DNA of 64,000 nucleotides, taken from NCBI RefSeq assembly GCF_000027125.1, contig NC_017626.1, one strand, 5' to 3'. A program made the position numbers and the translations under genes. The DNA is from Escherichia coli 042. GTDB taxonomy: Bacteria > Pseudomonadota > Gammaproteobacteria > Enterobacterales > Enterobacteriaceae. Position 1 is the first letter of the stretch, and each line of letters opens with the position of its first letter. Under the pieces are notes generated by a model, which saw only the letters and a program-made list of their open reading frames with translations, searched no databases and was not told the origin of the DNA. Shown here piece after piece: positions 17,037-17,117 of the stretch.

Positions 17037-17117
17037 TCATTTTTTGACAGCGGCGCATTGTGCCTAAATGGGGGGGAAATGACAAGAGAATGAGAGGCTT
17101 GTCATAATAATTTTTCT

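Follow-up and report, generated by a model that had tools for sequence, protein, structure and literature searches.

A near-invariant G7 tract between the boxes of a conserved promoter-like element preceding yoeI-plaP in Escherichia coli

Homopolymeric tracts situated in promoter spacers are known to be phase variable in several pathogens, such as the poly-G tract of porA and the poly-C tract of opc in Neisseria meningitidis and the poly-C tract of fim in Bordetella pertussis. Typical phase-variable tracts are longer than seven bases. Here we describe a run of seven G residues in a 64-kb stretch of E. coli DNA (referred to below as the window) that shares the placement of these tracts: it is a G/C homopolymer located between a -35-like and a -10-like box, where a change of one base would alter the length of the spacer. 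The likeness does not go beyond position. The tract is only 7 nt long, has a single length in ~99% of E. coli genomes and is absent from related genera, and its rare length variants follow sequencing batches.

The unit that hosts the tract has already been catalogued as STnc240 (Rfam RF02074). The early, low-numbered STnc candidates were predicted orphan promoter/terminator pairs found in intergenic regions (Sittka et al. 2008). In the supplementary table of that study STnc240 is placed in the yeeF/yeeY region of Salmonella (2147409-2147333), with 0 control reads, 1 Hfq-coIP cDNA read and the Northern entry 'np' (not probed). STnc240 is thus catalogued as an sRNA gene, though the evidence for it consists of a promoter/terminator prediction plus one cDNA read. 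Because the family was built from a predicted candidate with a single cDNA read, its Rfam 5' boundary is not a mapped RNA end. An origin of STnc240 from the 3' end of gabT was later proposed (Jose et al., Mol Biol Evol 2022, PMC8825220).

The gene downstream of this unit, plaP, encodes a putrescine/proton symporter whose full function needs the small open reading frame yoeI (PMC11630599). Putrescine represses plaP in Dickeya oryzae (PMC12039241), and plaP is up-regulated in an E. coli speB mutant (PMC11968103). For yoeI itself, the ArgR paper contains just a weak and unreproduced ChIP-chip signal.

The tract and its setting between yeeY and plaP

The sequence GGGGGGG occupies positions 17070-17076 of the + strand of the window, in the context tgcctaaatgggggggaaatg. 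A preliminary description of this DNA had reported the tract at these positions, between the stop codon of yeeY (17118-17120, minus strand) and a hairpin upstream of plaP (17007-17031); the location was confirmed and the quoted context matches exactly. The surrounding genes are yeeY, which codes for a LysR-family regulator (17118-18047), yoeI, an annotated 20-codon ORF that lies downstream of the hairpin and overlaps the start of plaP (16841-16903), and the putrescine importer gene plaP (15493-16851). All three are encoded on the minus strand. In the sense of transcription the tract is therefore C7, and it follows the yeeY stop at a distance of 41 nt.

Read in that sense, the yeeY stop is followed by an inverted repeat, the trinucleotide TTT, C7, ATTTAGG, the -10-like box CACAAT, a 25-nt A-rich stretch and an intrinsic terminator (17001-17031, minus strand). 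The terminator is composed of a 10-bp stem, AACCGACGTT/AGCGTCGGTT (17031-17007), with a 5-nt loop, and a T run at 17006-17001. This G+C-rich stem-loop and its ATTTTTT tail are present in both the minimum-free-energy and the centroid folds. The earlier name 'plaP upstream hairpin' is acceptable for it, as the hairpin is an intrinsic terminator that accompanies plaP in other genomes.

The tract is the sole G or C run of seven or more bases in the window. Dinucleotide-preserving shuffles of the window predicted a mean of 5.63 G7/C7 runs, where one is seen, and at least one such run in 98 of 100 shuffles, so that the existence of a G7 is unsurprising and statistically unremarkable. G/C runs are in fact depleted in this DNA, with 5 G6 runs seen against 22.6 expected from the shuffles. 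What stands out is that the single long G/C run of the window is found in non-coding DNA.

The inverted repeat, ATGACAAG-N11-CTTGTCAT (17079-17104, minus strand), directly follows the yeeY stop, and its downstream arm includes the -35-like box of the element described below. It is predicted to fold into an 8-bp hairpin in yeeY read-through RNA. The repeat is only partly conserved outside Escherichia, as in Citrobacter and Enterobacter, and its upstream arm is polymorphic within E. coli, reading CTGACAAG in K-12 and ATGGCAAG in B2 strains. The mirror image of the repeat (17079-17108) contains a strong + strand promoter-like match, ATGACA-18-CATAAT with an upstream TG (10/12), which would fire antisense into yeeY. 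On the other side of plaP, the tsuB-tsuA genes (yeeD-yeeE), a segment of ~1.45 kb that is present in K-12, O157 and every comparison strain, are absent from between sbcB and plaP (window 15416-15491). This absence is a natural polymorphism: sbcB abuts plaP in the same manner in 782 of 5,426 complete genomes.

Tract length among E. coli genomes

The preliminary description had noted that tracts of this length can undergo slipped-strand changes and had proposed a comparison across strains. We ran this comparison on 5,426 complete E. coli genomes, using BLAST queries in which the tract was framed by 28-nt flanks, such that any single difference removes a hit from the ≥99% identity band; genome counts rest on the exact-identity band of each query. 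The G6, G8 and G6T queries found 5,416 genomes and the 63-nt G7 query 5,324; this gap is probably caused by the low-complexity filter, and ~5,416 was used as the denominator for the length counts.

An exact G7 was found in at least 4,913 of ~5,416 genomes. The band of the G6 query held 50 genomes, 48 of them full-length matches, and G8 was found in 2 genomes (0.04%). Alignments of the hits indicated that ~450 genomes carry substitutions elsewhere in the query, outside the tract. A second haplotype, that of B2-type strains, is distinguished by an A-to-G change in the upstream arm of the palindrome and by two changes in the terminator loop; on this haplotype the tract is exactly G7 in 582 genomes and exactly G6 in 6. 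The G6 allele thus amounts to about 54 (48 + 6) of 5,416 genomes (1.0%), and the length of the tract is near-invariant, with G7 in ~99% of genomes.

The G6 records are unevenly distributed among sequencing projects. Three submission series, namely Belgian pig-ETEC (13 records), 'UID23/24...' (9) and Perm (6), contributed 28 of the 54, and most of the remaining records belong to series giving two to five each. The genomes within a batch range from 4.70 to 5.27 Mb and G6 is found on two distant, unrelated haplotypes; therefore, the G6 genomes are not clones. In order to list all indels relative to the window, we took the 24-32 kb around the tract from nine variant assemblies. Three of the nine have another private homopolymer indel within 20 kb. 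In ETEC1734 a G5-to-G4 deletion frameshifts yefM (equivalent to window 19329-19333), in the G8 assembly E29 a one-base deletion frameshifts sbmC (equivalent to window 12268), and in UID2309220033 the U run of the terminator (equivalent to 17001-17006), 70 nt from the tract, is shortened from T6 to T5. The first two of these deletions disrupt core genes, and all three are probably long-read consensus errors. The same search revealed no other private homopolymer indel in E2865, 2014C-4587, Ch1, CEC01302, ETEC1720 and NCTC10444. Given the batch clustering and the additional homopolymer indels, most of the length variation is probably due to homopolymer miscalling in long-read assemblies, while a minority of the variants may be genuine. 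In practice, where an assembly was built from long reads only, a G6 call at this position is most likely an error.

A coding-region control for homopolymer errors, the C6 run of wcaJ (46523-46528), was discarded because its exact flanks occur in just 166 genomes, which gives no power; C5 was found in none of them. Among the variant assemblies, E2865 also lacks one CAC codon in the histidine-codon run of the his leader peptide gene hisL (window ~19807), which is accordingly annotated with 48 nt instead of 51 nt.

These data bear on whether the tract could act as a slow contingency switch, in which gain or loss of one G would shift the spacer from 17 to 16 or 18 nt and retune transcription towards plaP. 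The placement of the tract between the two boxes, the existence of G6 and G8 alleles and the six variant assemblies with no other sign of error speak for such a switch. However, the length of the tract falls short of that of typical phase-variable tracts and hardly varies among the genomes, three batches account for more than half of the G6 records, which are scattered over unrelated lineages, a third of the examined variant assemblies contain further homopolymer errors, and outside Escherichia the tract does not exist. We therefore consider a switch very improbable. By the criterion of the preliminary description itself the slipped-strand idea is not supported, as the tract barely changes in length and its few variants group by sequencing batch, and whether the G6 and G8 variants are taken as real or as errors, the site does not behave like a contingency locus.

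The origin of the tract also points away from slippage. In E. albertii, E. coli E69 and Escherichia sp. E1V33 the corresponding sequence is TTTACCCCCCATTT, as compared to TTTCCCCCCCATTT in E. coli, and ACCCCCC versus C7 is the sole difference to these genomes from the boxes through the terminator. As the total length is equal, C7 is a C6 run extended by an A-to-C substitution and not a product of slippage. Judging from this comparison, the substitution became fixed in E. coli proper: the sister-species allele, GGGGGGT on the + strand, was found in 0 of 5,416 complete E. coli genomes.

Promoter-like boxes, terminator and a proposed aminotransferase relic

A consensus scan of the minus strand identified a -35-like box, TTGTCA (17080-17085), and a -10-like box, CACAAT (17057-17062), separated by the 17-nt spacer TTTCCCCCCCATTTAGG (17063-17079), of which C7 forms positions 4-10. 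The pair TTGTCA-17-CACAAT matches the consensus at 9 of 12 positions, including the A at position 2 and the T at position 6 of the -10 box. The scan by itself is not significant, with 2 sites as compared to 0.9 +/- 1.0 in shuffles; on the minus strand, from the terminator to yoeI, it found no other promoter-like site.

We searched one genome from each species for the conserved stem of the terminator as an exact pattern, which identified 120 loci. The stem appears unusually invariant for a terminator, bearing in mind that the scan demanded an exact match. The pattern, AACCGACG-loop-GCGTCGGTTNTTTTT, was also found at second loci away from plaP in several Citrobacter and Atlantibacter genomes (scan loci L010, L031, L055, L065, L108, L110, L111, L122 and others). 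One further locus (L114), labelled Chryseobacterium sp. 18061, has an enterobacterial yeeY-element-plaP arrangement with YeeY 79% and PlaP 87% identical to those of the window; this record is probably mislabelled or contaminated.

With the TTG and CAnAAT anchors built into the search rule, 73 of 75 Enterobacterales sequences have TTGnnn upstream of CAnAAT at a distance of exactly 17 nt (23 species) or 18 nt (50 species). The -35-like box reads TTGTCA in 38 of the 75 species, whereas CAnAAT is present in all 75 and is always preceded by G. The sequence between the boxes is free to vary between genera, its C content ranging from 0 to 59%, while its length is held at 17 or 18 nt. Independent C or G runs of 5-6 nt occur in the equivalent spacer of Lonsdalea, Chimaeribacter and Pluralibacter-like genomes (C6 in L066, L067, L075 and L118; G5-G6 in L037, L103 and L114), which fits a spacer whose sequence is unconstrained. 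Sixty-four of the species have a non-coding region here, and in 62 of them both boxes and their spacing are kept. In this set the columns of the tract carry 0.1-0.8 bits and are, by alignment, the least conserved part of the element; the boxes, the downstream leader and the G that invariably precedes the -10 box carry 1.3-2.0 bits. As the sequences are homologous and were retrieved via an exact terminator pattern, the conservation of the boxes is to be read as constraint and not as independent recurrence. Conserved hexamers, a constrained spacing and a free spacer sequence are together the signature that would be expected of a sigma-70 promoter.

These columns also qualify the earlier remark that the tract is probably neutral. 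For its sequence the remark stands, as no part of the element is less conserved among the 75 species. For its length it probably does not, since the tract supplies 7 of the 17 nt between boxes that are held 17-18 nt apart.

In 74 loci (one per species) in addition to the window, a plaP orthologue follows the hairpin at a distance of 86-400 nt. Among the 56 loci for which at least 1.3 kb of upstream sequence was available, yeeY is directly adjacent to the element in 24, an aminotransferase gene lies between yeeY and the element in 6, and no yeeY is present within 2.5 kb in 26, including loci of Yersinia, Pectobacterium, Dickeya, Pantoea, Erwinia, Lonsdalea, Hafnia and Kluyvera. With 26 of 56 loci devoid of yeeY, the element travels with plaP and not with yeeY.

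In 11 species both boxes are covered by an aminotransferase ORF of 226-496 codons that ends 8-11 nt short of the hairpin, and the same bases encode ...GLNILSSCLELVQNTRLTK*. In these species the boxes are located inside the ORF, so that coding constraint could explain their presence. The ORFs agree with the gabT proposal (PMC8825220): the element is homologous to the last ~70 nt and the terminator of an aminotransferase gene, as in the 3'-end-derived sRNAs and leaders of that study, and the gene itself is still present in Buttiauxella, Cedecea and Franconibacter. There, however, STnc240 is treated as a Salmonella sRNA, while the relic seen here has a much wider distribution (Yersinia, Pectobacterium, Dickeya, Pantoea, Erwinia and others) and is associated with plaP rather than with yeeY.

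This history raises the alternative that the tract is a functionless remnant of the lost 3' end of the aminotransferase gene, now situated in the 3' UTR of yeeY. The boxes would then not be a promoter and would have been kept for another cause, such as a transcription-factor site or slow decay, and the hairpin would just terminate yeeY. The shared coding bases in 11 species and the published gabT origin speak for such a remnant, as do the facts that the hairpin is the first terminator after yeeY and that C7 is unpaired in the predicted fold of the 3' UTR. No mapped transcription start site (TSS) was found in the accessible literature either: the E. coli 5'/3'-end tables of PMC7815308 have no entry at 2,087,0xx-2,087,3xx, coordinates whose equivalence to the element was derived from the yeeY entries in the same tables. 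This negative result carries little weight, since those tables, which may be incomplete, give no TSS for plaP at all. Against a functionless remnant, the boxes and their 17-18 nt spacing persist in the non-coding species despite a spacer that has diverged beyond recognition, and 26 species that have no yeeY still carry the element ahead of plaP; the alternative leaves this persistence unexplained in lineages that have neither the aminotransferase gene nor yeeY. Moreover, E. coli and E. albertii differ at a single base of the block, whereas their YeeY proteins are just 93% identical. We regard the remnant explanation as unlikely, while giving it some weight.

The STnc240 model and the 5' end of the element

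The window matches the complete STnc240 model (positions 1-77) at 16998-17072 of the minus strand, scoring 68.2 bits where the gathering score is 55. The match has the same place between yeeY and yoeI/plaP (yeeF) and the same terminator as the Salmonella candidate. It differs in that E. coli is one base shorter ahead of the GCAnAAU block and shows a C run in place of the consensus 'uca'.

The 5' end of the match, at 17072, falls inside the tract. This permits a further alternative, in which the tract is the C-rich, single-stranded 5' end of an STnc240 RNA that pairs with G-rich targets, an example being CCCCAUUU with AAAUGGGG, which lies 170 nt downstream at the start codon of yoeI. The C run is indeed predicted to be unpaired, and its complementarity to the yoeI start region is perfect over 8 nt. 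Yet the Rfam boundary on which this depends comes from a predicted candidate, the single cDNA read and no mapped end. Further, the AUGGGGCAA start of yoeI is invariant in ~50 species, but only Escherichia has the complementarity; in other genera it covers 0-6 nt with no compensatory change, and the tract columns are, as noted, less conserved than the rest of the element. Pairing between the C run and this start codon was rejected as a candidate, being Escherichia-specific and devoid of covariation, and is probably due to chance. An RNA 5' end with such a role is, in our estimation, improbable.

The Rfam boundary also provides a point against reading the boxes as a promoter, as the 5' end lies upstream of the -10 box and would not fit if it were real. 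An alternative promoter that suits this 5' end (ATGACA or TGACAA with TGTCAT or TCATTT) was considered and rejected because its -10 matches proved poor on inspection. The species comparison suggests that the first ~20 positions of STnc240 are promoter DNA, i.e. spacer and -10 box, and not RNA, a reading that is compatible with how the family arose.

Implications for yoeI-plaP

The explanation that we prefer, and hold to be somewhat probable as a whole, is a fixed filler in a promoter-like element: a G7 tract that does not switch, within the 17-nt spacer of a conserved promoter-like element that, together with a terminator, lies upstream of yoeI-plaP. C7 would have no sequence-specific role in the sigma-70-type promoter-like element TTGTCA-N17-CACAAT, and only its share of the spacer length would be likely to matter. 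An intrinsic terminator follows the putative promoter after ~25 nt, and then yoeI-plaP; this promoter/terminator unit corresponds to Rfam's STnc240 and would have originated as a relic of the 3' end of the aminotransferase (gabT-like) gene that some genera still carry. If the boxes act as a promoter, the transcript would either stop at the hairpin, giving a short RNA of roughly 50 nt, or read through into yoeI-plaP.

The region downstream of the hairpin has features that are of interest in this connection. The 20 codons of yoeI are conserved as MGQFF...(N/D)HVA in ~50 Enterobacteriaceae species, with the start mentioned above and a stop that overlaps the plaP start, and some ORF of 15-30 codons occupies the position of yoeI in 58 of 75 loci. 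By its sequence, yoeI resembles a conserved leader peptide with translational coupling to plaP. A second candidate, a small ORF in the leader itself (ATGACTAAA...), was rejected since its ATG is missing in several genera.

A more ambitious and only tentative proposal is that STnc240 is a promoter plus leader-terminator controlling yoeI-plaP across Enterobacterales, possibly the site of putrescine control in Dickeya and E. coli, with C7 setting the 17-nt spacing. If this were true, the few genuine G6 and G8 strains would represent natural alleles of differing promoter strength.

The tract itself is of little consequence, behaving as a stable homopolymer and not as a genetic switch. A modestly new by-product of its analysis is the suggestion that STnc240 may be a plaP leader (promoter plus terminator) across Enterobacterales rather than a free-standing sRNA gene. 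The box pair and terminator, which are conserved upstream of plaP from Escherichia to Yersinia, are more useful than the tract, and if STnc240 really is the plaP leader they would provide a concrete place to seek the putrescine control of plaP.
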